IMG/VR virus record: IMGVR_UViG_3300037067_027602
Span: 1-64,000 of that record
Strand: one strand, 5' to 3'
DNA from: a virus
Lineage: Duplodnaviria > Caudoviricetes
Length of the DNA: 64,000 nt
The translations under genes and the position numbers were made by a program. Position 1 is the stretch's first letter, and every line of letters starts with the position of its first letter. Below are positions 11,370 to 30,696 of the stretch, one piece after another. The notes beneath the pieces were generated by a model that saw nothing but the letters and a program-made list of their open reading frames with translations, had not been told where the DNA came from and made no database searches.

Positions 11370-11462
11370 GTTGGGCTTGACGTCCCCGGGGGACGACGCC
11401 TTCAAATCAATCCCGCCGGCCAAGCCGACTTCCCTAGCATAGCCAATTTTCTCGTCAGGCAT
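10752..11462 (-). CDS. Degenerate dUTPase-like domain plus unknown C-terminal domain
   Basis: AGGIDLKA (motif I-like), VKPNSRVSVP; other dUTPase motifs not clearly present. Confidence 0.5.
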   Translation of the reverse strand: MPDEKIGYAREVGLAGGIDLKASSPGDVKPNSRVSVPFDPPEGCPAGPFSNLATDWSLLERGVVVAGMRSNGGSNALMLINTSNKRFPWSAGTKLASVSFDGGMSIHATLECTSTESSGGKTVPMEYAAPPPASEVPDDPPPIGKEGVVQDASEEAPAWIWRVVPAGEGFEYHARPISHPGYGRCGFCFSWDGETAAMVDTPVGGMDSKPFTSVDAARAFCDELDRQLHAQAEGGA

Positions 11463-12204
11463 TTCCTTTTTCCTTTCTATTGAGTTGTTCCAGATCTTCG
11501 AAACGTTCCTCCGTGAATCCGACGAAGTCCATCATGTCTTCTCGAACGGAGGAGATGCTTTCCACCCGCACCACCCCTTGGTAGACTAGAGCCACCCTGG
11601 TTTTTTCCCCATCTTCGCAGACGAGCCATAGGCCTTTGCCGTGAGGCGACTCGGCCGAAATAAGGGCTTTGGAATAGATGGCGGCCGCATAGGGCTCCCA
11701 GGGGGCAGTATCCAAATATGAACGCACGCTCCTCGTTGCCTTCTTTTTGTCAACTAGAACCCAATTCAGCTTACATTTGGATTTCTTCTCCTCGACATAC
11801 ATCCCGAAGAGGTACTGGCCGAGCGGGTTCCCCTCTTTCATGCTCTCGGGGCGGTCGTCGAGTTCCTTCGGCAGCAGCCCGGACTTGATGGCCAGATACG
11901 TCCAGGTGTAGACGACGGCGTTCCACAGCATGGCGGCGAGATGGTTCTCGTCGGTCACGCCGCACTTGTGCCAGAACAGGTGCCGCTCGATGGACGCCAT
12001 GGTCCGCATCAAGGGGATTCCCTTCTCGAAGTTACGCTCGCCGTATTTGTCCGCCCCCGCCCCGAAATGCGCCCCGAGGAACAGCTGCACCGCCGGCGGG
12101 ATCAAGTCCGGGCGCGGCTTGCCGGTCTGGGTGTCGCGGACGGCTCCGGTGCTGAAATCCTGGCGCTGGCCGCTGTCCTTGATCGTCTGGTTGATTTCGC
12201 TCAT
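11455..12204 (-). CDS. dATP/dGTP diphosphohydrolase domain (DUF5664-like) protein with AT-richer C-terminal extension
   Basis: FSTGAVRD..GKPRPDLIP, GADKYGERNFEKG, RH, HLAAMLWN. Confidence 0.85.
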   Translation of the reverse strand: MSEINQTIKDSGQRQDFSTGAVRDTQTGKPRPDLIPPAVQLFLGAHFGAGADKYGERNFEKGIPLMRTMASIERHLFWHKCGVTDENHLAAMLWNAVVYTWTYLAIKSGLLPKELDDRPESMKEGNPLGQYLFGMYVEEKKSKCKLNWVLVDKKKATRSVRSYLDTAPWEPYAAAIYSKALISAESPHGKGLWLVCEDGEKTRVALVYQGVVRVESISSVREDMMDFVGFTEERFEDLEQLNRKEKGNA

Positions 12205-12324
12205 TTCTGGCTTACCTGCTACTTTCTACCTACGCACAAGTGCGCAGGATTTATAAAATTCCCACTTCTACCAACGGCTCTCCGGCGAACCGAAAAACCG
12301 CCATCCATGGGCATGACTTCCCGG

Positions 12325-13413
12325 CTAGCCGCCGGTAGATGTTATTAGAGACTCCAGGTTCAGAGCGGCGTTCAGGTCGCGGTCGACCACGAAGCCGCAC
12401 GAACCACAACTGAAAACTTTGTCCGACCGTTTCAAGTCCAGATTCAAAGCCCCACAACTTGAGCAGAGCTTGCTGGACTTGTACCAACGGTCGGCTTTCC
12501 TCAGATCCACTTGGTAAGGGATGGCCTTGTAGGACATCATCCCGGCGAACTCCCCGAAGCCCTCGTCCATGACGTATTTGGCTCCCGGATCCTTGTGGAT
12601 CATGCTTGCCACCGACAACGTCTCAATACATACCGCTTGGCTCTCGCGGCAGATAGAGGTGGTCGTCTTCTGGAGGAAATCCCTGCGGACATTGGCTATC
12701 CTCCAGTGGAGTTTGGCCAATTTATCCGCCGCCTTTTTCCGGTTTTTCGACCCTTTCACTTTTCTTGAATGTTCCCTGGACAAATGTTTCAACCGCTTCA
12801 GTTTCTTCCTGAGCGGTTTCGTGGACTGATAGACCGTCCCATTCGACAATGTGACGGACATCCTGACACCTAGGTCGATCCCAACTTCGTTTATCCCGGT
12901 CTTAGGCTTTGTTTCGGCTTTGTCCATATCCACCTGGACAGAAACGAACCAGCGGTCAGCGGTGCGACTAATCACCGCCGATTTAATCTTGCCGTCGAAT
13001 CGAAGCGGTTCTGTCATCTTCACCCATCCCAGACAAGGAACCTTGATCCATTCACCATCCAGTCGGAATTTGTCGTTGGCCATGTAGAATGAATCCTTGG
13101 ACTTCCCTTTCTTCTTGAAGGCCGGATGGTCGGCCTCCTTCTTGAAAAACTTGACGAACGCCGACTGGAGGTTGGCGAAAGGCTGCGCGTTGGCGTCGCG
13201 ATGAACTTCGTCAACCCATGGAAATTGTTCTTTCTTTATTTGGTTGAATTGCTTTTTCAACGCCATGCCAGACGGTTTCCCTCCAGCGATATACTGTTTG
13301 TTCCATTGTTCGAGAGCCCAGTTATAGACGAACCTGGCCGTGCCACAGGCTTGCTTGAAATAAGCCTCCTGTGTAAAATTTGGCTTCAATTGTATCTTGT
13401 GGGCGCGGATCAC
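12325..13413 (-). CDS. tnpB: TnpB (IS607-associated, HTH_OrfB N-terminus)
   Basis: GTARFVYNWAL, VGIDLG, CIETL, SSKLCSSCG, DRDLNAALNL; GTG start overlaps the tnpA stop. Confidence 0.95.
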   Translation of the reverse strand: MIRAHKIQLKPNFTQEAYFKQACGTARFVYNWALEQWNKQYIAGGKPSGMALKKQFNQIKKEQFPWVDEVHRDANAQPFANLQSAFVKFFKKEADHPAFKKKGKSKDSFYMANDKFRLDGEWIKVPCLGWVKMTEPLRFDGKIKSAVISRTADRWFVSVQVDMDKAETKPKTGINEVGIDLGVRMSVTLSNGTVYQSTKPLRKKLKRLKHLSREHSRKVKGSKNRKKAADKLAKLHWRIANVRRDFLQKTTTSICRESQAVCIETLSVASMIHKDPGAKYVMDEGFGEFAGMMSYKAIPYQVDLRKADRWYKSSKLCSSCGALNLDLKRSDKVFSCGSCGFVVDRDLNAALNLESLITSTGG

Positions 13414-14009
13414 TTCGACAAAGCCTCCTTCAACGACTTCCTGTAGTTGCGAAGGCCATAAAGACGGGATGAGAAACAATGGGTTATCGCCATCAAATCC
13501 TGAACCATTTCCTGTTCCGGGCTAAGCTGCTCGTTGTTTAAGACCAACAATTCACAATTGGCTTTGGAACAGATGTGTTCCAACAATGGAAAACCGAACC
13601 TCACCAAACGATCCTTGTGCGCCACTACCAACGTCCTCACCTCGCCAGCCTGCACCCTGTCAACCAATCGGAGGAATTCCTTGCGCTTGAAATTCATCCC
13701 CCCACCAATCTCTTCCACGAACTCCACCCCGGACAGTCCCTTGGCGACGCAGAAATCCTCTATGACCTTGCGTTGATTTTTCAAATCTGGCCGTTGCGCT
13801 TGCGACGACACGCGAATATATGCCACGATGGACCTCCTTCCAATCGTCAGAGGTATTCCAATAAAAGCCAGAAGTTGGGGCTCCGTGTAGAATCTCCTGT
13901 TCGTGGCAGACCGGGATGGAACAAGCCGTCCTTCTCGGTCCCACCGTTGCATCGTCTTGACCGACACCCCAAGACGATTCGCTGCATCTGTGATATTAAA
14001 AGTGTTCAT
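13410..14009 (-). CDS. tnpA: IS607 serine-recombinase transposase
   Basis: MerR-like HTH (AANRLGVSVKTMQRWD), YIRVSS, DRLVRFGF, FSSRLYGLR. Confidence 0.97.
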   Translation of the reverse strand: MNTFNITDAANRLGVSVKTMQRWDREGRLVPSRSATNRRFYTEPQLLAFIGIPLTIGRRSIVAYIRVSSQAQRPDLKNQRKVIEDFCVAKGLSGVEFVEEIGGGMNFKRKEFLRLVDRVQAGEVRTLVVAHKDRLVRFGFPLLEHICSKANCELLVLNNEQLSPEQEMVQDLMAITHCFSSRLYGLRNYRKSLKEALSK

Positions 14010-14306: not shown

Positions 14307-14560
14307 TTAATTTCCTTTCCCCGGGACGGCGGCTCCCCGCGCCCCGAAATAGTTTCCTATCACGAGCATGGCCACACCCAGGAACTCCGGCGACACCGGC
14401 TTCCCCGTGGCATAGCAGAACATCAGCGTCCCCGTGACTCCGGCGGCGATGAAAGCCCTGACGCTGCCTTGCGGCAGCCCCAGGGGTTCGTCCGGGCGCG
14501 TCCACGGAACGCAGGGCGGCTTTTCGTCCCCCCTTTCTCCTGGACAGCGGGTTCAGCCAT
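14307..14560 (-). CDS. Small two-TM membrane protein (holin-like), needing a -1 shift at a G6 run
   Basis: ATG frame MAEPAVQEKGG; -1 frame DEKPPCVPWTRPDEPLGLPQGSVRAFIAAG...VIGNYFGARG...*. Confidence 0.6.
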
Positions 14561-14963
14561 TCTTCTTGGCGGACTTCAGCCCCTCCGAGATGCCGTCCCG
14601 CAGCCCCTTCAAGAACTGGCCGATCTCCTGGCGGTCGAGGGAGTGGACGTCGACCTTGTACTTCTCGGCGGTGGAGGAGACGAAGTCGCAGGCGTAGTCG
14701 ACGGCCTTCTTCGCCATGTCGTTGCCGCCCAGCTGGGCCTTGACGACCTCGGGGATGGAATCGACGCCGCCGTCGACCACCTTGTCGAAAATCTCCTCGT
14801 CCTCCATGGCCCCCCAGACGGCGGCCGCCCCGGAGGCGACGGCGCTGGGCAACCCGGCGCGGCGGTTGAGGTAGAGGCCGATGCCCTTTGTCCCGGCGGT
14901 TTTCCCGATGCGGTAGGCGACGCTCCCGGCGATTTTGCTCTTGATCCACTGGATGCCGAACAT
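14553..14963 (-). CDS. Hypothetical protein
   Basis: RBS aaggag; coding-like composition. Confidence 0.7.
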   Translation of the reverse strand: MFGIQWIKSKIAGSVAYRIGKTAGTKGIGLYLNRRAGLPSAVASGAAAVWGAMEDEEIFDKVVDGGVDSIPEVVKAQLGGNDMAKKAVDYACDFVSSTAEKYKVDVHSLDRQEIGQFLKGLRDGISEGLKSAKKNG

Positions 14964-14964
14964 G

Positions 14965-15036
14965 TCATGTCTCCTTGTTGCTTATGGATTCGCGGAAGCT
15001 CGGAATGACCTCCCGCACGCACTTTAAATTGTCGCA
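14965..15036 (-). pseudogene. Orphaned original 3' end of the GT9-like gene
   Basis: Encodes CDNLKCVREVIPSFRESISNKET*, aligning with the current GT tail CSDLRCVNEVITSFCKYI. Confidence 0.8.
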
Positions 15037-15725
15037 CCGTTCATTCAATCTTACATAAAGTTGAATGTTTACGCTCGTGGGGGGCGGTAGGCTCCCCACC
15101 CCGGAATCGATTCCTGATGTTCATGGCCGCGTTACGGTCGGCGTCCAAGGACGCCCCGCAATGCGGGCAATCGTATCTCTCGCCTTTTCTGGATTCCTTG
15201 CGGACGTTGCCGCAGGACGAGCATTGCTGGCTGCTATATGCCGGATCGACCTTCGCGAACTGAACACGGTTCAGCTCGCAGCGGGAAGACAACCTCCACT
15301 GCAACAGCCTGATATTCCAATTAGCCAATGTTTTTCTAAAGTTTTTGTTGGATTTCCCTCCCTTGCGTTTCATGTCCACCAAGTCCAGGTCTTCCACCAC
15401 CAAGGTGGAAACACCGGACAGGTCGAGTTTGGCCTGGGAAAGATGCGACTTGTCCAGCTTCAGGGTGTAGACCTTCAAGGTCAGGAGGGAACGCCTCTCT
15501 CTGGTGGCCTTGCCCGTGGCTTTGATAGCCGCGTTTTTCTCAAGCCTAAAAATCATCTTAAATCCTTAGGGCAAGATTTTATATATTTACAAAAACTCGT
15601 GATGACTTCATTCACGCATCTTAAATCACTACATCCTTGATGATTATAACAAGGAGAACATGGCAAATGACATTGAACATCTATTCCTAATTCATAACCA
15701 TCATGACGAACAGAACCACTCATAG
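15037..15725 (-). mobile_element. Degenerate TnpB cassette carrying a recoded replacement of its target gene's 3' end
   Basis: AT-rich tract about 15553..15725, coupled tnpB remnant, IS607-like right end ...ttgaatgaacgg; no left end or tnpA recognised. Confidence 0.7.
15041..15556 (-). pseudogene. tnpB: Internally deleted TnpB (N-terminal ~45 aa joined to RuvC-II, Zn ribbon and RuvC-III)
   Basis: VVEDL, YSSQQCSSCG, CPHCG, DADRNAAMNI present; RuvC-I GxDxG absent; 171 aa. Confidence 0.85.
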
Positions 15726-16377
15726 TGCTGTGGTAGCAGATCCAGCGGACCCCGAACGCCTCAGCCAGGTGGATGGCGCCGGAGTCTGTGCCGATGACAA
15801 GCAGCGCCCCGGAGATGGCCTCCGCCAGCAGCTTCCTGGTAGCGTAGCGGGGGTTGAGATAGACGTGCTCGGAGATAACGGAGCCCACTTTGGCGCGCGA
15901 CAGGCACATTTTCATGGCTTCAAGCATGTCCTGGTCCGGAACCTCCCGGCTCTTGCTTGTGGATTTCGTGAACACCAGGACGTCTTTGGGGACGGCCGAG
16001 GAACACCATCTGACGGCGCGGAGGGGGGAGAGGCTGGGGGGGACGGGCAACCCCACCCTCTCCGCCAACTCGACCATCAGCCGCTGCTGGGACTTCGGCC
16101 CCGCCTTGCCCGCGGCCACGAGCTTGTCATGGTTCTCGGGGACGTCATTCATGTTGAAAACGAGGTCGAACCCCGGGACGGACTTCCTCTTGTCCCCGTA
16201 GGGGTGGACCCGCAGCCTTGAGCACGCCACCCCCATGGCGTATTCCAGCCAGCGGTGGTTCTGCTCCATGGTCTCCACCTCGATCCCGTGCCCGGCGTCC
16301 ATGGCGGCGCGCATGAAGGGCAGCATCATGCACAAGTCTCCTATTCCATTGTGGCGGACAAAGAGTACCTTGCTCAT
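15553..16377 (-). CDS. Glycosyltransferase family 9-like protein
   Basis: VRHNGIGDL, IGTDSGAIHLAEAFG, LPCSPC. Confidence 0.85.
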   Translation of the reverse strand: MSKVLFVRHNGIGDLCMMLPFMRAAMDAGHGIEVETMEQNHRWLEYAMGVACSRLRVHPYGDKRKSVPGFDLVFNMNDVPENHDKLVAAGKAGPKSQQRLMVELAERVGLPVPPSLSPLRAVRWCSSAVPKDVLVFTKSTSKSREVPDQDMLEAMKMCLSRAKVGSVISEHVYLNPRYATRKLLAEAISGALLVIGTDSGAIHLAEAFGVRWICYHSTMSGSVRHDGYELGIDVQCHLPCSPCYNHQGCSDLRCVNEVITSFCKYIKSCPKDLR

Positions 16378-16964
16378 GGCAGCCTCCGCAAGATGAATTC
16401 GATGGCGCACTCAACATCGACATGTTCCCACCGTGTCTGGTCCTCGTCGCCGCGGGACAGGTCGTAGTTGTCGTATATCCTCTTGATCGACACGATCTCG
16501 GCCAGATGGGAGAACTCGGCGAGGAACTCCGGCACCACGATGGCCAGGGTGGGAGGAACCTCCCTGGAATGCCGCCACATGGTCTTGTGGTCGTGGTTGA
16601 ACCTGGACGGCCATAGGTATTTCTCGTACATCTTGGCGTCCGGGACGCAGACCACGAGATGGCCTCCGGGCTCCAGTATCCTCAACCAGTTCTGGACGGC
16701 CTCCACAGGATCCCGCATATGTTCCAGGCAATGGCTGGAATGGACGAAGCCAAAAACTCCCCGTCCATAGTTCTCCATTTTCTGGGCGTCGCCGTCCTTG
16801 ATGTCGTGCAGCCTGACGGAGCCCATGCGGGGATAGTCCGGCCGGAAGACCTCTATCCGGCTGTCGCCGCAGCCGACGTCTATCCCCTCGCCGGAGAAAA
16901 CCTTCAGGTATTCCTCCGGGCTCTTGGCCCTGCGGCGCATCGCTTTGGCGGACTCGTCGGCCAT
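16374..16964 (-). CDS. Class I SAM-dependent methyltransferase
   Basis: GIDVGCG, VHSSHCLEH, LEPGGHL. Confidence 0.88.
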   Translation of the reverse strand: MADESAKAMRRRAKSPEEYLKVFSGEGIDVGCGDSRIEVFRPDYPRMGSVRLHDIKDGDAQKMENYGRGVFGFVHSSHCLEHMRDPVEAVQNWLRILEPGGHLVVCVPDAKMYEKYLWPSRFNHDHKTMWRHSREVPPTLAIVVPEFLAEFSHLAEIVSIKRIYDNYDLSRGDEDQTRWEHVDVECAIEFILRRLP

Positions 16965-16966
16965 GG

Positions 16967-17251
16967 TCAGGATCTCCTCTCCCTCAGCTTTTTCGGGGAC
17001 GGCGGGGGCACGAAGTTCAAACATCCATTGACAAACTCAGCGGTCCAAAAAACCACCAGGAACACGAGGATGGACAATTCGAACATCCTCCAGAAACCCG
17101 GAGACTCGAACCTAGTGCCCGCTAACAGGGTCTGCCAGAAAGCGGCCCCCCGGAAGTTAAAATAGAGGACAAGGGAGAGGATTGTGGCGCAGAAGAAGAT
17201 ATCGATCGCCATGCAGATGAGTTTCAGCAGCAAATTGAATATTTTCCTCAT
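16967..17251 (-). CDS. Two-TM membrane protein
   Basis: Two hydrophobic stretches; ATGA overlap with the upstream gene. Confidence 0.65.
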   Translation of the reverse strand: MRKIFNLLLKLICMAIDIFFCATILSLVLYFNFRGAAFWQTLLAGTRFESPGFWRMFELSILVFLVVFWTAEFVNGCLNFVPPPSPKKLRERRS

Positions 17252-18939
17252 CGCACGGCCTCATGGGCATCGGTGACGAACTCGGGGTGGGAGATGCCCT
17301 TGAGCACCTGCTCCAAAAACATGCGCCAATGCGGCAACTTGTGGTTCTTGCGTTGGGAATGGATGTTCTTGAGCGTCTTGTAGGACATGCACCATTCACG
17401 CCGCTGGAGGAAACCCTCGGGAAGGACGGACTTGACGTGCTCCAGCGGAGTGCCCGCGTTGACCATGTCGTAGATCTTGCTGGCGGTGCGCTCGTCGCAT
17501 GAACCAGGCTCGAACATAGCCCTGATGGTGGTAATCCCAAGCACCCCGGACCACAACACGTCCTTGTTGAGCGTATGCATTGTGCTATTCCCCGACCATA
17601 TGGCTTTGCCGTTTCTTCTCGTATACAAAGTTCCGTTAGGTACGCTTGCACAATATACCTTCCCGACATAATCTTCAAGGAAAATATTTCCTTTAGAGGT
17701 AGAAAACATTCTGGTTTTGTGAGGAGATACGCAATACACATCATGCCTAGGATACTTCATTTCGCGCTTCGTGATGTTCGATGATATTCCAATATTTCTT
17801 AAAAGCCTTTGGACGTCATCAGCCAACTGTTTTGACACAGTGCTATAAATTCCAGAATACTTTGTTCCGTCACCAGCAAATAAACCCTTCCAAACTTCCA
17901 TTTGAAGTTCTTTAGACCAAGAAAAAACATATTCTGGAATATGTTTATTTAAAACTTTCCCCAATCCTGAAAAAATGTTATAAAATTGCTTATTTGAAAT
18001 TATCCACCTGTAATGCTTGCATCCGGAAGAAGTGTTTCTCTTCATATCAGTTTTATGAACCTTAAAAGGGAAAGATTTCAAACACTCTTCTATCATTGTA
18101 ATACATGGGTTATCATCATTTTGACACACAGAAACATTATAATTCCTCTTGGCTTTCTCACAACTTCCTTCCGCAAGGTAGAAGCCAAGGAACCACGCCC
18201 ATTTTTTACTATCCAAATTAAGCTCAGGCCAATTTTTGACGCATTCCCTACTACCCGTATCCCAAATATAATTTTCTTCCGGTACATGAAAAATTTGAGA
18301 TGGATCACCATCTCTCCAATCCCCTATTTTAGGAATGAATATTTTCTTGTTGACGGCTTTTACTGCCTTGACTTTTTTAAATATATTCCATTCGCTATGT
18401 TTCATACAAACAATCAAATCATGTTCCTGAGTTACCAGTAAATCTATTTTTTTGTTTAAAATATGAACCATCGGTTTAGAATATCCAAACACCATTCTTT
18501 CTGTGGAAGCCTGATATTCCAAAGTCTTAGTATCTATATTCAAAGTAGCAAATTTGGCATTTTCTGGAACATCCTTAAATAAAAACCACCCCTTATCCGT
18601 CAAGGCCTCAGTATCTTCTGAAAAGCATGCGGACTGCTTCGTGCTGAGCCGATAAGTGTCAGCCTCCTGCCACCAGAACCTCGGTGCGGTGACATCAAGC
18701 CACATGACCATGGACTCAAGGAACTTGTTGTGGCCGCCGTCCATCGGGGCGAGCCGGGCGGTCAGCCTGTCAAGTTGATCCCTAGTGTTGTCGGGGAGGT
18801 CTCCGTAGTCGCGGAACGGCGTGGTGACGCCCTTGCTCAGCCCCAGGCCGAAGGCGGCGCTGCGGTAGCCGGCCTCCTCCATGACCTTGGCGACCATGAC
18901 TGGTTGATAAGCAACCTCTTTTTCTGTTTCCTGAGTCAT
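17248..18939 (-). CDS. ThyX-like (flavin-dependent thymidylate synthase-like) phage protein with intein
   Basis: GHNKFL, APRFWWQEADTYR, QSA|STMHT, LPEGFLQRR, QRKNHKLPHW. Confidence 0.75.
   Translation of the reverse strand: MTQETEKEVAYQPVMVAKVMEEAGYRSAAFGLGLSKGVTTPFRDYGDLPDNTRDQLDRLTARLAPMDGGHNKFLESMVMWLDVTAPRFWWQEADTYRLSTKQSACFSEDTEALTDKGWFLFKDVPENAKFATLNIDTKTLEYQASTERMVFGYSKPMVHILNKKIDLLVTQEHDLIVCMKHSEWNIFKKVKAVKAVNKKIFIPKIGDWRDGDPSQIFHVPEENYIWDTGSRECVKNWPELNLDSKKWAWFLGFYLAEGSCEKAKRNYNVSVCQNDDNPCITMIEECLKSFPFKVHKTDMKRNTSSGCKHYRWIISNKQFYNIFSGLGKVLNKHIPEYVFSWSKELQMEVWKGLFAGDGTKYSGIYSTVSKQLADDVQRLLRNIGISSNITKREMKYPRHDVYCVSPHKTRMFSTSKGNIFLEDYVGKVYCASVPNGTLYTRRNGKAIWSGNSTMHTLNKDVLWSGVLGITTIRAMFEPGSCDERTASKIYDMVNAGTPLEHVKSVLPEGFLQRREWCMSYKTLKNIHSQRKNHKLPHWRMFLEQVLKGISHPEFVTDAHEAVR
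17587..18627 (-). mobile_element. Intein (347 aa) with LAGLIDADG homing endonuclease
   Basis: Starts CFSEDTE, block B VTQEH, FLGFYLAEG and GLFAGDG, ends VYC..VPNG...WSGN|S; strongly AT-rich. Confidence 0.93.
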
Positions 18940-27631: not shown

Positions 27632-27885
27632 CGTCCCGCCCCCCTGAAACCGTCCCTCTTCCCAGGCCTCCAGGGGGAGAAGAAATCCTCTTTGCCTTTC
27701 GGGCGGGGCGGGGCGGCGGCAGGAGGGCCGGGCGGTTCTGGGGGGATATGGTATATTTCCAGCTCCTGGAATGGATCCTCGTCGATAGCTCCAGTCCCAC
27801 ATTCCCTGCCGAAAGCGTCCCGGGCCACCGTGGATGACCAGCCGGCCATCGCCCCAACGAGCCCCAACATGACGCGCCCGATCAA
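27628..27885 (-). CDS. Small hypothetical protein
   Basis: TTG overlaps the dnaE stop; stop overlaps the helicase ATG. Confidence 0.5.
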   Translation of the reverse strand: MIGRVMLGLVGAMAGWSSTVARDAFGRECGTGAIDEDPFQELEIYHIPPEPPGPPAAAPPRPKGKEDFFSPWRPGKRDGFRGAGR

Positions 27886-30542
27886 TTCACCACCTCTTTG
27901 GAAAGCCGCCGGGCATCCTTGACGCTGTCCTTCGACTTGTACCGCTCGATGGTGAACAGGTAGACCGCCCCCTCGTCTATCGGCGGCAAGGCCTCGTACT
28001 GGTCGGGGAAACATGCTATCTCCATGTCGTGGCAACCGTCCGCCAGCGTCAGGAACAGCATCTTGCGGCCGAGGTTCTTCCCTTTTTTGGCGATGATATG
28101 CTCCGCTTTCCTGACGACGCAGGCCAGGACGCCATGATCCCCGTGGCCGATCTGCTCTCCGTCCACGAAATCCCGGACCGTGTGGTTCGTCCAGTCGCGG
28201 GTCTCCTCCCGGAACTGGTCGCAGGGCGACTCGCTGACGAACGCGCCGAGAAGCTCCTTCTCCAACCTCAGTTCGTCCTCCTTGTCCGTGGCGGGATACG
28301 CCTCCCTTGCGTTGGCCTCGGCCGCCACCATCTCCTCGACAGGCGTGAATTTTTTCACCTTCACCCCCGCCTCCACCTTTTTCCTCTGTTCACGGATCTT
28401 CTTGGCGACAACGGAAACTGCCTTGTAACGGGCGGAGAGAAGATCCCGCGACGCGCCCATGTGGTCGAACGCACCCGCCCTGATCATGGCCTCCACGGCG
28501 TTGGAATGCAGCTTGCTGGAGTCCATAAGGTGCGCCCACCCGGAGAACCCCGGCCCCTCCGCTTTGGAAACCGCCTCCGAAAGCCCCTTGGCGGCGTTGA
28601 CGGAGACGCCCTTGATGAAGGCCAGCCCGATTCTCACGCCCCCCTCTCCATCGGGGGCGCAGAACGGGTCGCAGTCAGCCTCCGCCAGGGGAGGGACGAC
28701 GTTGTGCCCGAGGATGCGGCACTCGTTGACATACTCCTCGATCTTCGGCTCGTTCGAGTCCAGCTCGCCATTGAGGAGCTCGCTCATGTACTGCACGGGA
28801 TAGTTGTGTTTCAACCACATCTGTTGTACCGCTATTTTACTATAGGCTGTAGAATGAGCCCTACAAAATCCGTAGGATGAAAAGAACTCTATATAGGCAA
28901 AAACCTCGTCTGTCCTCTTAGAATCCCTACCTAAAAGAACTGATTTATCCTGAAACATCTTCTTTACTTTTACCATCTCCTTCGGTTTCTTTTTGGCCAC
29001 CGCCCGGCGCAGCTTGTCCGCCTCCGCCAAAGTGAACCCGGCGTATACCTGCGCCATTTTCATGACATCCTCCTGAAAGATGGGAAAACCCATCCCTGAG
29101 GCCAAAACTTCCTTGAGGCTGTCATCGATGCAGGTGACCTCCTCGACCCCGGCCTTGCGGTCGATGTAGTGGTCTATGGTGCCAGCGTCTGCGGTGCCAG
29201 GCCGGATAATGGCCGCAAGGACGACAATGTCGTCGAACTTGGAGATGTTCATCTTCCTGCAAATGGCCTGGACATAGCGCCGTTCCAACTGGAATATCCC
29301 GGACGTCCTCCCTTGCGCGAACATGGACAACGTGGCTGGGTCCTCCATCTCGATCGACTCCACGTCGATGTCCGCCCCCGTCTCAACCCTGATGCGGTCG
29401 ACCGTCCTATGGATGACGGCGATGGTGTTCAAACCGAGGGCGTCGATCTTGAGGAACCCGGTCTCGTCGATGTCCTTCATGTCCCATTGGGTGAGGACGG
29501 CCTTCTCCTCGGCTTTGCCGATCTTCAGGAAATTGAGCGGCATGTAGTCTACGATGGCGGAGGGGGCGACGAGGATGCCCGCCGGATGCGCGCTGGCGCT
29601 CTTCGGTTTCCCCGACAGCTTCTTCGCCATCGAGAACCACTCCGGGCGCAGCTCCATCTCCTCTTTTAGGTCGGGGTTGATGGCGACGCATTTGTCGAAA
29701 TCGTCCACACCGTTCGGGAACATTTTGGACACCCTATCCGCCTCTGCAAGCGGTATCCCGAACGCCCTGGCGCAATCTCGCATGGCGGAGCGGGTTTTCA
29801 TAGTCCCGAAGGCGGCGATGCGGCAGACGCGCTCCGGGCCGTATTTGGAGATGAGGTACTCCAGCACCCGCTCGCGGGCGGCCGGCTCGAAGTCCAAGTC
29901 GATGTCTGGGGCTCCGCCCCCTTTGCCCAGCAGCTTCTTCCTGGCCACCAGGTCTATGGGGTCCTGGGAGAGGCCGAGCGCGGCGAGCACGGGGGAATTG
30001 AGCGTGTTTGTGTATTTCTTGCCGAAGGCCAGCCCCGTCTGGAGCCGCCCAAGGTAGAGCTTCTCGTCGGGGTCGGTGAAAAACCACTCCTGGTCGGCGG
30101 CCTCCCAGACCTCGGCCGGGACGCCGGGGCGGGGGGTGGACGGGAACTGGGCGGGAACGTCCTTGGAGCCTTTCCTGCGCTCAGCCATCCACTCGTCCTT
30201 CGGCAGCTCCGGCACGTCATGGGGGCAGGATAGGAAACGCCCGGGGTTGAGGAAACGCTCGAACAGAAGCCCGTACCTGATCGGGTCGATGGAGGTGATC
30301 CCCATGGCGTAGCACACCATGGAGCCCCCGCAGGAACCGCGGCCGGGGCCGACGTACGAGCCGGAGGCTTTCGCCTGGTCCACGAGGTCGGCGATGATGA
30401 GGAAGTAGTCGCAGAAACCCATCCTGCGGATGGCCTCGAGCTCGTAGTCGAGCCGTTCCTTGTAGGGGCCGCCCTCCGGCAAACCCATGGATTTATAGCC
30501 GCGGTTTACTTTCCAATAGAAGTATGAAGTTCTCTCGTCCAT
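27882..30542 (-). CDS. dnaE: DNA polymerase III alpha, catalytic part (palm, thumb, fingers, OB), lacking PHP
   Basis: RLDYEL, DYFLII, GPGRGS, FERFLNP, PDIDLDF, HPAG, KIDALGL, YGFCRAH. Confidence 0.95.
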   Translation of the reverse strand: MDERTSYFYWKVNRGYKSMGLPEGGPYKERLDYELEAIRRMGFCDYFLIIADLVDQAKASGSYVGPGRGSCGGSMVCYAMGITSIDPIRYGLLFERFLNPGRFLSCPHDVPELPKDEWMAERRKGSKDVPAQFPSTPRPGVPAEVWEAADQEWFFTDPDEKLYLGRLQTGLAFGKKYTNTLNSPVLAALGLSQDPIDLVARKKLLGKGGGAPDIDLDFEPAARERVLEYLISKYGPERVCRIAAFGTMKTRSAMRDCARAFGIPLAEADRVSKMFPNGVDDFDKCVAINPDLKEEMELRPEWFSMAKKLSGKPKSASAHPAGILVAPSAIVDYMPLNFLKIGKAEEKAVLTQWDMKDIDETGFLKIDALGLNTIAVIHRTVDRIRVETGADIDVESIEMEDPATLSMFAQGRTSGIFQLERRYVQAICRKMNISKFDDIVVLAAIIRPGTADAGTIDHYIDRKAGVEEVTCIDDSLKEVLASGMGFPIFQEDVMKMAQVYAGFTLAEADKLRRAVAKKKPKEMVKVKKMFQDKSVLLGRDSKRTDEVFAYIEFFSSYGFCRAHSTAYSKIAVQQMWLKHNYPVQYMSELLNGELDSNEPKIEEYVNECRILGHNVVPPLAEADCDPFCAPDGEGGVRIGLAFIKGVSVNAAKGLSEAVSKAEGPGFSGWAHLMDSSKLHSNAVEAMIRAGAFDHMGASRDLLSARYKAVSVVAKKIREQRKKVEAGVKVKKFTPVEEMVAAEANAREAYPATDKEDELRLEKELLGAFVSESPCDQFREETRDWTNHTVRDFVDGEQIGHGDHGVLACVVRKAEHIIAKKGKNLGRKMLFLTLADGCHDMEIACFPDQYEALPPIDEGAVYLFTIERYKSKDSVKDARRLSKEVVN

Positions 30543-30555
30543 TTCTCGTTCCCCG

Positions 30556-30696
30556 TTAATAGTTGAAGGCTGCCGGAGCAGCTCCTTTTTTGAACTCAAG
30601 GGCGATCCCCGCCCCCATCACGCCGACGCAATTGACCGTGTTCACGCGGATTTCGACGTCCGCCCCGAAAATATCCCCGTCCGCGAGCGTTATCAT
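30556..30696 (-). pseudogene. Truncated macrodomain (DarG/Poa1-like N-terminus), 46 aa
   Basis: MITLADGDIFGADVEIRVNTVNCVGVMGAGIALEFKK then early stop; below the ORF-track size cutoff. Confidence 0.8.

Follow-up and report, generated by a model that had tools for sequence, protein, structure and literature searches.

The window analyzed here, which covers the first 64 kb of an uncultured virus record of 156.5 kb (IMG/VR IMGVR_UViG_3300037067_027602; estimated completeness 89%; GC 0.61), carries a cassette in which a heptosyltransferase-like gene ends in a foreign, AT-rich segment, the stop codon of this segment overlaps the start of a tnpB stump, and the native ending of the same gene lies displaced beyond the right end of the tnpB element. 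Arguing from analogy, and with a confidence that stops just short of an even chance, we propose that the cassette is the decayed remnant of a homing-type TnpB "gene hybrid", an RNA-guided counterpart of the mobile open reading frame (mORF) hybrids of fungal mitochondria. In that analogy, an architecture of this kind is a recognized mark of mobility driven by a nuclease.

All features of the cassette lie on the minus strand, and coordinates are window positions. Two comparison sequences recur below: L001, a 1364-nt metagenome contig with an uninterrupted, GC-rich homologue of the transferase gene (hereafter the host gene), and L004, a phage-like contig with a complete IS607-type element consisting of a small open reading frame (ORF), a serine-recombinase tnpA and tnpB.

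15729..16377, minus strand: body of the heptosyltransferase-like gene (GT-B / GT9-fold), codons 1-216; recognized by ORF, translation and host-type composition
15553..15728, minus strand: foreign AT-rich replacement, last 57 codons plus stop; GC at third codon positions (GC3) 0.05-0.26
15041..15556, minus strand: decayed IS607-family tnpB, a 171-codon ORF with RuvC-II/III and zinc finger kept and REC/WED and RuvC-I lost; PF07282 match only, alignment to 399-408-aa relatives
15421..15556, minus strand: 5′ third of the stump, scrambled; without DNA similarity to L004
15036..15420, minus strand: tnpB 3′ third and right end; blastn, 92.5% identical to the intact L004 element
15037..15225, minus strand: predicted omega-RNA scaffold, kept whole; consensus fold of 7 family copies
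15036..15042, minus strand: right-end terminus GAACGG(T); family alignment
15017..15036, minus strand: predicted guide template, the first 16-20 nt or so of the displaced ending; position after the right end
14965..15036, minus strand: displaced native last 23 codons (15036..14968) and stop (14967..14965); DNA homology to the L001 gene end
14971..14976, minus strand: AAGGAG ribosome-binding site of the next gene, within the displaced tail; read from the sequence
14553..14963, minus strand: 136-aa next gene without a family match; in L001, conserved behind the empty allele

Read 5′ to 3′ on the minus strand, the order is a methyltransferase (16374..17024), the 274-codon host gene (15553..16377), the 171-codon ORF (15041..15556), 77 nt without a start codon, and a 136-codon gene (14553..14963). 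The DNA of two other assemblies is 100% identical across the cassette and the gene list of a third contig shows the same order, which rules out an assembly artefact; we rejected an assembly chimera on the strength of these assemblies. Samples in which the phage group occurs are JGI 3300035208 and 3300014204, and SRR18595299 and SRR18595300.

The host gene ends in a foreign but conserved segment

An earlier reading of the letters alone, which we refer to as the original prediction, had described the last ~170 nt of a GT9-like gene as AT-rich and its stop as overlapping the ATG of a tnpB remnant, and both descriptions hold. In blocks of 19 codons, GC3 of the host gene is 0.79-1.0 through codon 209 and 0.05, 0.26 and 0.22 in the last three blocks, with the switch in composition between the codons at ~15729/15728. 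Per 100-nt window, GC is 0.29-0.34 over 15550-15700 compared to 0.59-0.69 immediately upstream. The tail's GC3 would point to a source genome of ~30% GC. The TGA of the host gene (15555..15553) overlaps the ATG of the stump (15556..15554) as ATGA, and the sole domain match of the stump is the Cas12f1-like TNB domain (PF07282, E 6.5e-19).

Pfam Glyco_transf_9 gave a weak, sub-threshold match to the host gene (E 0.0012), and a profile search of PDB sequences returned the same weak motif. For an AlphaFold2 (AF2) model of the gene product (predicted local distance difference test score, pLDDT, 73), the best structural matches were the heptosyltransferases WaaC and TibC, with E values down to 7e-9. 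The label "GT9-like" thus appears acceptable at the level of the modeled fold.

Four homologues of the host gene share a Cys-rich C-terminal motif with invariant C240, H246, G248, C249, C254 and V255, in agreement with the expectation that homologous proteins would end in tails of this kind. All of the last 57 residues are encoded in conserved form by the AT-rich ending, at 61% protein identity to the end of the L001 homologue. Because this ending retains every invariant residue as well as the C-terminal GT-B helix, which the AF2 model places at residues 253-268, the hybrid gene is probably functional. Truncation of the gene at G248 would mean the loss of two conserved Cys and of this helix.

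Two further observations concern the host gene. A stretch just before the switch (15690-15750) resembles the N-terminus of the next gene (14915-14963), both reading F-G-x-x-W-I ... G-S-V (tblastn E 0.012, ~14/18 bases matching); the similarity may be due to chance, or it may be microhomology used in a rearrangement. In addition, a distant homologue (L012:2349-3683, 38% identical, 444 aa) is a transferase with a fused C-terminal methyltransferase domain. The methyltransferase of the window is a separate gene upstream of the transferase, and a fusion or fission links both activities.

The native ending lies displaced beyond the element

The displaced ending begins directly at the right end of the element, in the frame of the host-gene end and with no start codon of its own. 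The AAGGAG within it stands 7 nt before the ATG of the next gene (14963), and the arrangement in L001 is alike. Between the displaced ending and the recoded tail, 10 of 23 residues are identical, all of them within the first 18, as the original prediction had counted; this score was unreached by 3000 shuffles. A tblastn comparison of the upstream and downstream flanks of the cassette gave an E value of 3.6e-4.

L001 provides an empty allele. Its first 450 nt, comprising the methyltransferase and the first ~130 nt of the host gene, are 100% identical in DNA to the window, its host-gene homologue shows 74% protein identity, and its gene end and next gene are 81% identical in DNA to the displaced ending and next gene of the window (15027..14832). 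At the insertion point L001 reads CAGGGT and then TGC in frame, running into the same next gene, and an empty allele of this form had been foreseen. The displaced ending shares 12 of 23 residues with the L001 end and 10 of 23 with the inserted tail. Together with the GAACGG(T) terminus and the AAGGAG, the L001 homology bears out the earlier claim of an IS607-like right end followed by the original gene end, which carries the ribosome-binding site of the next gene.

The recoded, native and L001 tails are about equidistant from one another (10, 11 and 12 of 23 residues identical), which argues that the recoded tail comes from a third lineage and is not a drifted duplicate. Further alleles of the host gene were sought at several levels. 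A protein search returned only the protein of the window itself, that of L001 and two homologues at 33%; IMG/VR held no record with the host gene, the upstream methyltransferase or the next gene; and the Joint Genome Institute (JGI) metagenomes held only L001 and the 38% homologue with the methyltransferase fusion.

L001 has an AT-rich insertion of its own at L001:1273-1364, 130 nt downstream, with a promoter-like TTGACA box, a ribosome-binding site and an ATG; its next gene is cut after 44 codons. Taken with the cassette of the window, this insertion marks the locus as an insertion hotspot in both phages.

The tnpB is a stump with an intact right end

RuvC-I (GIDVG) and the entire N-terminal lobe are absent from the stump in alignment to full-length relatives of 399-408 aa, in keeping with the earlier statement that this copy is internally deleted. 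The complete RuvC triad (D-E-D) with zinc finger that marks members of the IS607 family is therefore not found in the stump. Only its last 385 nt (15420..15036) are clearly derived from tnpB, with 92.5% identity to L004, whose 407-aa TnpB is the nearest full-length relative and is 91% identical in the shared part; upstream of 15420 there is no match. The first 45 codons are scrambled, with a 12-residue island that corresponds to family positions 209-221 and a short internal repeat that matches positions 277-283, which indicates at least two internal deletions or rearrangements. We rejected a frameshifted tnpB as the source of these 45 codons, as only the two short islands match. In the shared coding part, the ratio of nonsynonymous to synonymous divergence (dN/dS) against L004 is 0.17, suggesting that tnpB was under selection until recently and that its decay is recent.

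At the other end, the element appears complete. The terminus GAACGGT is common to 7 of 8 aligned family copies, that of the window included, similarity ends directly after it, and the identity to L004 ends at the same point; the right end is thereby placed at 15037/15036. It closes in a conserved GG with unrelated flanks beyond, as IS607 right ends do (PMC13565253). Across 7 family copies, the last ~170 nt of the element have a conserved fold of 47 pairs, 11 of them with compensatory changes. The window's copy of this predicted omega-RNA is intact, and none of 200 shuffles folds as well as it does (z -3.2). No Rfam family, RAGATH-18 included, matched it at the gathering score or even at E 10.

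Even with up to 3 mismatches allowed, the predicted guide 20-mer (15017..15036) occurs only once in the window. Compared to the presumptive guide target, the recoded tail differs at 7 of 21 positions, and the preceding G-run is lost as well. IS607 TnpB proteins have G-rich target-adjacent motifs (TAMs; AGGAG or GAGGG in the tested members) and a strict seed, and single mismatches at positions 1-13 abolish cutting by a tested IS607 TnpB; cut positions were also reported (PMC11061315). Of the "guide-immune tail" of the original prediction, the altered positions and the missing G-run therefore stand, and the immunity itself is presumed. The left flanks of L004 and of a second relative, L014, end in GGGG and the empty site of L001 reads CAGGGT (the left flank of the window's own copy is deleted), which would fit the G-rich TAMs. 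We note that the original gene end does occupy the guide position, as had been proposed, and that this holds for any IS607 insertion into a gene and is no evidence by itself.

The left junction is a replacement of codons

The replacement comprises 57 codons, compared to 23 native codons left downstream, so that 34 native codons were replaced and not duplicated. The left end of the family starts after GGGG, with AATAGTTCA a few bases inside; over 15533..15745 we found no significant match to it, nor one above shuffles. Between the host gene and the stump there is no tnpA, and the position directly upstream of the stump, where a serine-recombinase tnpA would stand, is taken by the tail of the host gene. 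No sigma-70-like promoter was found in 14400-16500. These searches agree with the original prediction that no left end, promoter or transposase would be recognizable. From the 34 replaced codons and the lack of a left end and tnpA, we conclude that the left junction arose by homologous or homeologous replacement (gene conversion or crossover) and not by transposition; a simple insertion of the cassette is excluded on this side, as it would have duplicated the 34 codons. The right junction, read from its sequence, is a canonical IS607 end.

Phages 21 and e14 integrate into icd via an attP that carries a replacement 3′ end of the gene. By the same route, a circular element with a replacement gene end in its attachment site could have integrated here with IS607 TnpA as the integrase. 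IS607 TnpA is a serine recombinase with a circular intermediate and a GG crossover (PMC13565253), and the right junction is a clean GG|T. Such an event should nevertheless leave endings of equal length, and the 57 and 23 codons seen here exclude site-specific integration on the left; moreover, there is no GG crossover near 15728, no core repeated at ~15728 and 15037, and neither a recombinase nor a left end in the cassette. We regard this route as very improbable.

Toward the cassette, synonymous divergence (dS) between the window and L001 rises over 40-codon blocks from 0 through 0.12, 0.28, 0.74 and 0.75 to saturation; downstream of the cassette, identity is 70-90%. Read from the alignment, this would fit the profile expected from repeated conversion around a break site (co-conversion). 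Because of the AT-rich insertion that L001 itself carries 130 nt beyond, the gradient is not assignable to one of the two lineages.

Exchange with AT-rich relatives also occurs independently of the cassette, as an element-free example in the same phage indicates. A dnaE-like ORF (905 codons, 27882..30599, minus strand) contains an in-frame AT-richer patch of ~190 nt (28805-29000; GC3 0.3-0.5 vs 0.8-0.95 around it) with no mobile element adjoining, which suggests either a scar left by co-conversion or sequence exchanged with an AT-rich relative. The AT-rich ending of the host gene could likewise have been imported independently of tnpB, its position beside the stump being secondary. The route could have been co-conversion by a free-standing homing endonuclease since lost, by a neighboring intact IS607 or by an intein, or general mosaic recombination. 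The other AT-rich islands of the window (the dnaE patch and the LAGLIDADG intein in thyX), the hotspot marked by the L001 insertion 130 nt downstream and the presence of an intact IS607 1 kb away are in line with this explanation. It leaves unaccounted for, however, that the tail ends within 12 nt of the stump and that no other nuclease remnant lies between tail and stump, and we think it unlikely. The native 23 codons survive only through the tnpB right end that separates the two tails, which implies that the tail came with the element or after it.

The intein and the IS607 belong to the immediate surroundings of the cassette, in a window that holds six tnpB-like genes. Two genes upstream, a thyX-like gene (17248-18939, minus strand) is split by an AT-rich LAGLIDADG intein of ~1 kb with a GC of ~0.33. 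The intact IS607, with tnpA at 13410..14009, encodes a TnpB only 33% identical to that of the cassette and is a different element. L002, a near-identical variant of the phage, matches the window at 100% from 16554 to 12216, where the intact IS607 has its right end. Beyond 12216 this variant skips a dATP/dGTP-diphosphohydrolase-like gene (11455..12204) and resumes at 96-97% identity (window 11492-12216 vs L002:4339-4341). Because this indel begins exactly at the IS607 right end, the two phages would template different guides.

Relatives of the stump and a second locus of the same layout

We compared the translated upstream and downstream flanks of the cassette and of 12 further elements, namely the four others in the window and eight relatives of the stump. 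None of the 12 had a duplicated tail (all at E of at least 0.013, vs 3.6e-4 for the cassette), and we rejected tail duplication as a habit of this TnpB family or of the phage's other TnpB elements. A wider screen covered 75 and then 27 further IMG/VR phage TnpB loci, for ~115 loci altogether. Matches at L049-L061 were rejected as repeat-protein paralogues flanking IS605 and not displaced tails, and L025 proved to be a decayed tnpB half without a duplicated tail. Among isolate phages, the TnpB family of the stump had only three distant matches, at 30% identity or less.

The screen yielded one positive besides the cassette, in a phage of 252 kb (L136:260-3571, IMGVR_UViG_3300032030_001257; the same phage as 3300028888_001839). 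Here, an intact major-capsid gene is followed by a 140-nt gap, a full 488-aa TnpB, ~190 nt, and a 139-residue capsid fragment. The fragment is 47% identical to capsid residues 199-290 and continues to the end of the gene (divergent 3′ third). In four relatives with capsid proteins 78-99% identical to that of L136 (L145, L147, L148 and L149), both tnpB and the fragment are absent; their DNA homology to L136 ends 3 nt past the capsid stop, and in one of them homology picks up again directly behind the fragment. A different TnpB occupies this position in a fifth relative, L146. We regard L136 as a genuine further case of the layout of gene, tnpB and displaced end. We found no relatives of its TnpB, and its right end is hence not definable. 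An IscB-like N-terminus starts at L136:3982.

Among the family of the stump, several phages (L013, L017, L018, L020-22) carry tnpB with a decayed tnpA or a small upstream ORF, and in all relatives with an upstream ORF the stop of that ORF overlaps the tnpB start. In the related phages L013 (2605-3001), L017 and L018, an untranslated remnant of the tnpA C-terminus precedes an intact family tnpB near terminase genes, and L018 has a second, unrelated tnpB 1 kb downstream. Elements of the family also have a conserved 59-63-aa ORF before tnpA (L004:318-497, L014:1718-1909), and L014 has a 168-aa ORF between tnpA and tnpB (L014:2498-3004). In L022, a 49-aa ribbon-helix-helix ORF (L022:2855-3004) is coupled to tnpB and recalls the Arc repressors reported for IS605 elements.

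A proposed history of the cassette and its weighing

We hypothesize the following history. An ordinary TnpA-made insertion 3′ of a G-run would once have split the host gene somewhere in the phage group, and a foreign version of the gene ending would later have become linked to tnpB by recombination. Spare tail, tnpB and omega-RNA, now one unit, could then have entered alleles bearing the native ending: guided by RNA, the nuclease would cut 16-22 nt inside this ending, and in a co-infected cell the occupied genome would serve as the template for repair. With its 7 of 21 changed target positions and lost G-run, the spare tail would have kept the gene working and at the same time uncuttable. Once no empty alleles remained to cut, tnpB would have lost its 5′ two-thirds; degeneration after target exhaustion is the usual life cycle of homing endonucleases. 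Translational coupling of the stump, cleavage and spread are steps that we infer from the DNA.

Several features would fit this history. The left junction is recombinational, and the join lies within 12 nt of the stop codon with the ATGA overlap typical of the family. The multiple discontinuities of the stump are compatible with the stepwise decay of a longer tnpB and not with a single junction. The dS gradient toward the cassette and the second locus of the same layout, L136, point in the same direction.

The facts observed are, however, common to this reading and to one in which the cassette is a one-off accident. In the latter, a normal IS607 with tnpA and tnpB, as in L004, transposed into the gene 3′ of GGG and truncated it. 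The gene was then rescued by one recombination event with an AT-rich relative in a co-infected cell, in which an intact foreign gene ending took the place of 34 codons, the left end, tnpA and most of tnpB. The stump would be debris, kept as an open reading frame only to avoid polarity on the next gene, and nothing would ever have been a mobile unit. We give such an accident serious weight, at somewhat under an even chance and a little below our own proposal. The insertion site suits normal IS607 targeting (GG, then T), the compositional chimera speaks for a recent join, and the dnaE patch is an AT-rich, in-frame exchange in the same phage with no element involved. An accident would also leave no other copy to be found, and the other assemblies carry the identical dead copy. 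On the other hand, an element-free donor would normally be expected to restore the gene and to delete the insertion sequence entirely by two homologous crossovers. To leave the cassette as it stands, the accident needs a rare illegitimate right junction that falls within 12 nt of the donor stop, in frame and with an ATGA overlap. Neither the several discontinuities of the stump, where one junction would be expected, nor the recurrence of the layout at L136 with an intact tnpB is accounted for, and the dS gradient suggests repeated exchange around the site.

A number of results weigh against our proposal of a homing-type gene hybrid, some of which are those just named in favor of an accident. 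The original prediction had stated that intact relatives with a normal left end and tnpA and no duplicated tail would point to a one-off product, and in part this is what we found: the closest intact relatives (L004, L014 and L023) are ordinary IS607 elements with tnpA and no duplicated tail. Tail duplication was absent from all 12 elements in the flank comparison, and the suggested search for tnpB flanked by duplicated protein tails did recover L136, but as the only one besides the cassette among ~115 phage TnpB loci. The same cassette was not found in other genetic backgrounds; the other assemblies are 100% identical and have the same deletions, indicating a single lineage, and any recent spread was thus not driven by the TnpB of the cassette. 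With RuvC-I and the REC/WED (N-terminal) lobe absent, this nuclease is, on the evidence of its sequence, dead, and no intact cassette was found in very large protein libraries.

The tail and the target raise further objections. Neither a donor nor a second copy of the tail turned up among 5.8 billion proteins searched by shared words, and in a HMMER scan of 1.84 billion cluster representatives the nearest match was the L001 protein at 61%, again with no second copy; nor does the phage itself contain a paralogous donor. The contrast in GC3 between the tail (0.05-0.26) and the tnpB piece (0.69) indicates a compositional chimera, hence a young fusion of tail and tnpB for which a long career as a unit is unlikely. 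The L001 allele, by its sequence, could not be a target, as it differs from the guide in the seed, and the TAM native to the ancestor of the window is deleted and can only be deduced. Residues 1, 2 and 4 of the stump agree with the invariant start of the family, and four codons are too few for certainty that they are the true tnpB start.

Beyond the window, we suggest tentatively, at somewhat less than an even chance, that phages harbor a class of transposase-independent TnpB "cleave-and-rescue" cassettes, of which the window preserves a burnt-out member with its empty allele visible in a relative. Members of such a class could consist of a nuclease gene, an omega-RNA that takes its guide from the displaced original end of a phage gene, and a foreign replacement of that end that is immune to cleavage. 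If the class is real, phage TnpB would act as a self-sufficient RNA-guided homing endonuclease with its own rescue copy, beyond its role as a transposon-retention device, and a cassette could enter genes that are useful or even essential without any cost while spreading between co-infecting phages. This is the cleave-and-rescue design of engineers, already reached by protein endonucleases in mitochondria. The class would explain the persistence of tnpB inside phage genes without tnpA, the presence of nuclease genes where exchanged segments begin or end, and the origin of the short in-frame patches of foreign sequence seen in phage genes. Because target, guide and immunity can all be read from DNA, the idea is directly testable. 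The copy in the window offers a relative, 100% identical upstream, whose allele is empty and whose divergence grows toward the site, and it offers a view of a stage of decay.

Comparison with known systems

The closest parallel is found in the mORF gene hybrids of fungal mitochondria, described for atp6 of Allomyces macrogynus and for atp6, atp9, cox2 and nad3 of Glomus sp. (PMC3630166). The order is the same in those hybrids and in the window: the core of the gene, an in-frame foreign C-terminal part, an endonuclease gene and, downstream, the untranslated native C-terminal part. Also alike are the partial replacement of the native end in some cases, the phylogenetically foreign origin of the inserted end and the frequency of degenerate endonuclease ORFs (PMC3630166), and partial C-terminal duplications beside degenerate endonuclease ORFs have been described as well (PMC6279837). 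The features by which such hybrids are recognized are present in the window: an in-frame foreign C-terminal part that keeps the conserved residues, a (degenerate) nuclease gene between both ends, a downstream native end closest to the element-free relative, and an element-free allele, in L001. The nucleases differ. In mORFs, a LAGLIDADG or GIY-YIG protein reads DNA, whereas TnpB would presumably take its specificity from RNA templated by the displaced end. The mORFs are organellar and their mobility was demonstrated biochemically for Allomyces, whereas the cassette resides in a phage and is known from sequence alone.

With IS607 TnpB/omega-RNA elements (ISFba1 and relatives; PMC11061315, PMC13565253), the cassette shares the TNB zinc finger, RuvC-II/III, the GG right end, and a serine-recombinase tnpA in its nearest intact relatives; a structured RNA is predicted over the tnpB 3′ end, and insertion would have been at a G-run. 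Unlike them, it has no tnpA, left end, RuvC-I or RAGATH-18 match, its left junction was made by homologous codon replacement, and a spare end of the host gene is attached.

The proposed mode of spread has a precedent in plasmid populations, where TnpB drives a TnpA-independent "gene drive" of IS605 by cleavage of the co-resident empty site and repair from the occupied copy without transposase (PMC11870625). There, the mobile unit is a complete insertion sequence that interrupts its site, and no cleavage-immune gene replacement is described. A 2026 review terms such spread "transposon non-restorative homing", describes the retention of elements by TnpB cutting of the vacated site, and treats co-infecting phages as a TnpB target as a theoretical case only (PMC13565253).

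Free-standing homing endonucleases of phages (T4 SegF, SegB and MobE; PMC2330249, PMC2790892, PMC10448857) which move by intronless homing, resemble the cassette in their phage setting and spread by co-infection, in the distinction of self from non-self by sequence differences near the gene, in graded co-conversion and in the location of nuclease genes at the borders of exchanged segments. They differ in being protein-only nucleases that lie between genes with no duplicated gene end. In the literature that we searched, none of the TnpB units described brings with it a replacement of the interrupted gene. Set against all of these systems, what would be new in the cassette is an RNA-guided version of the known mORF gene hybrid.

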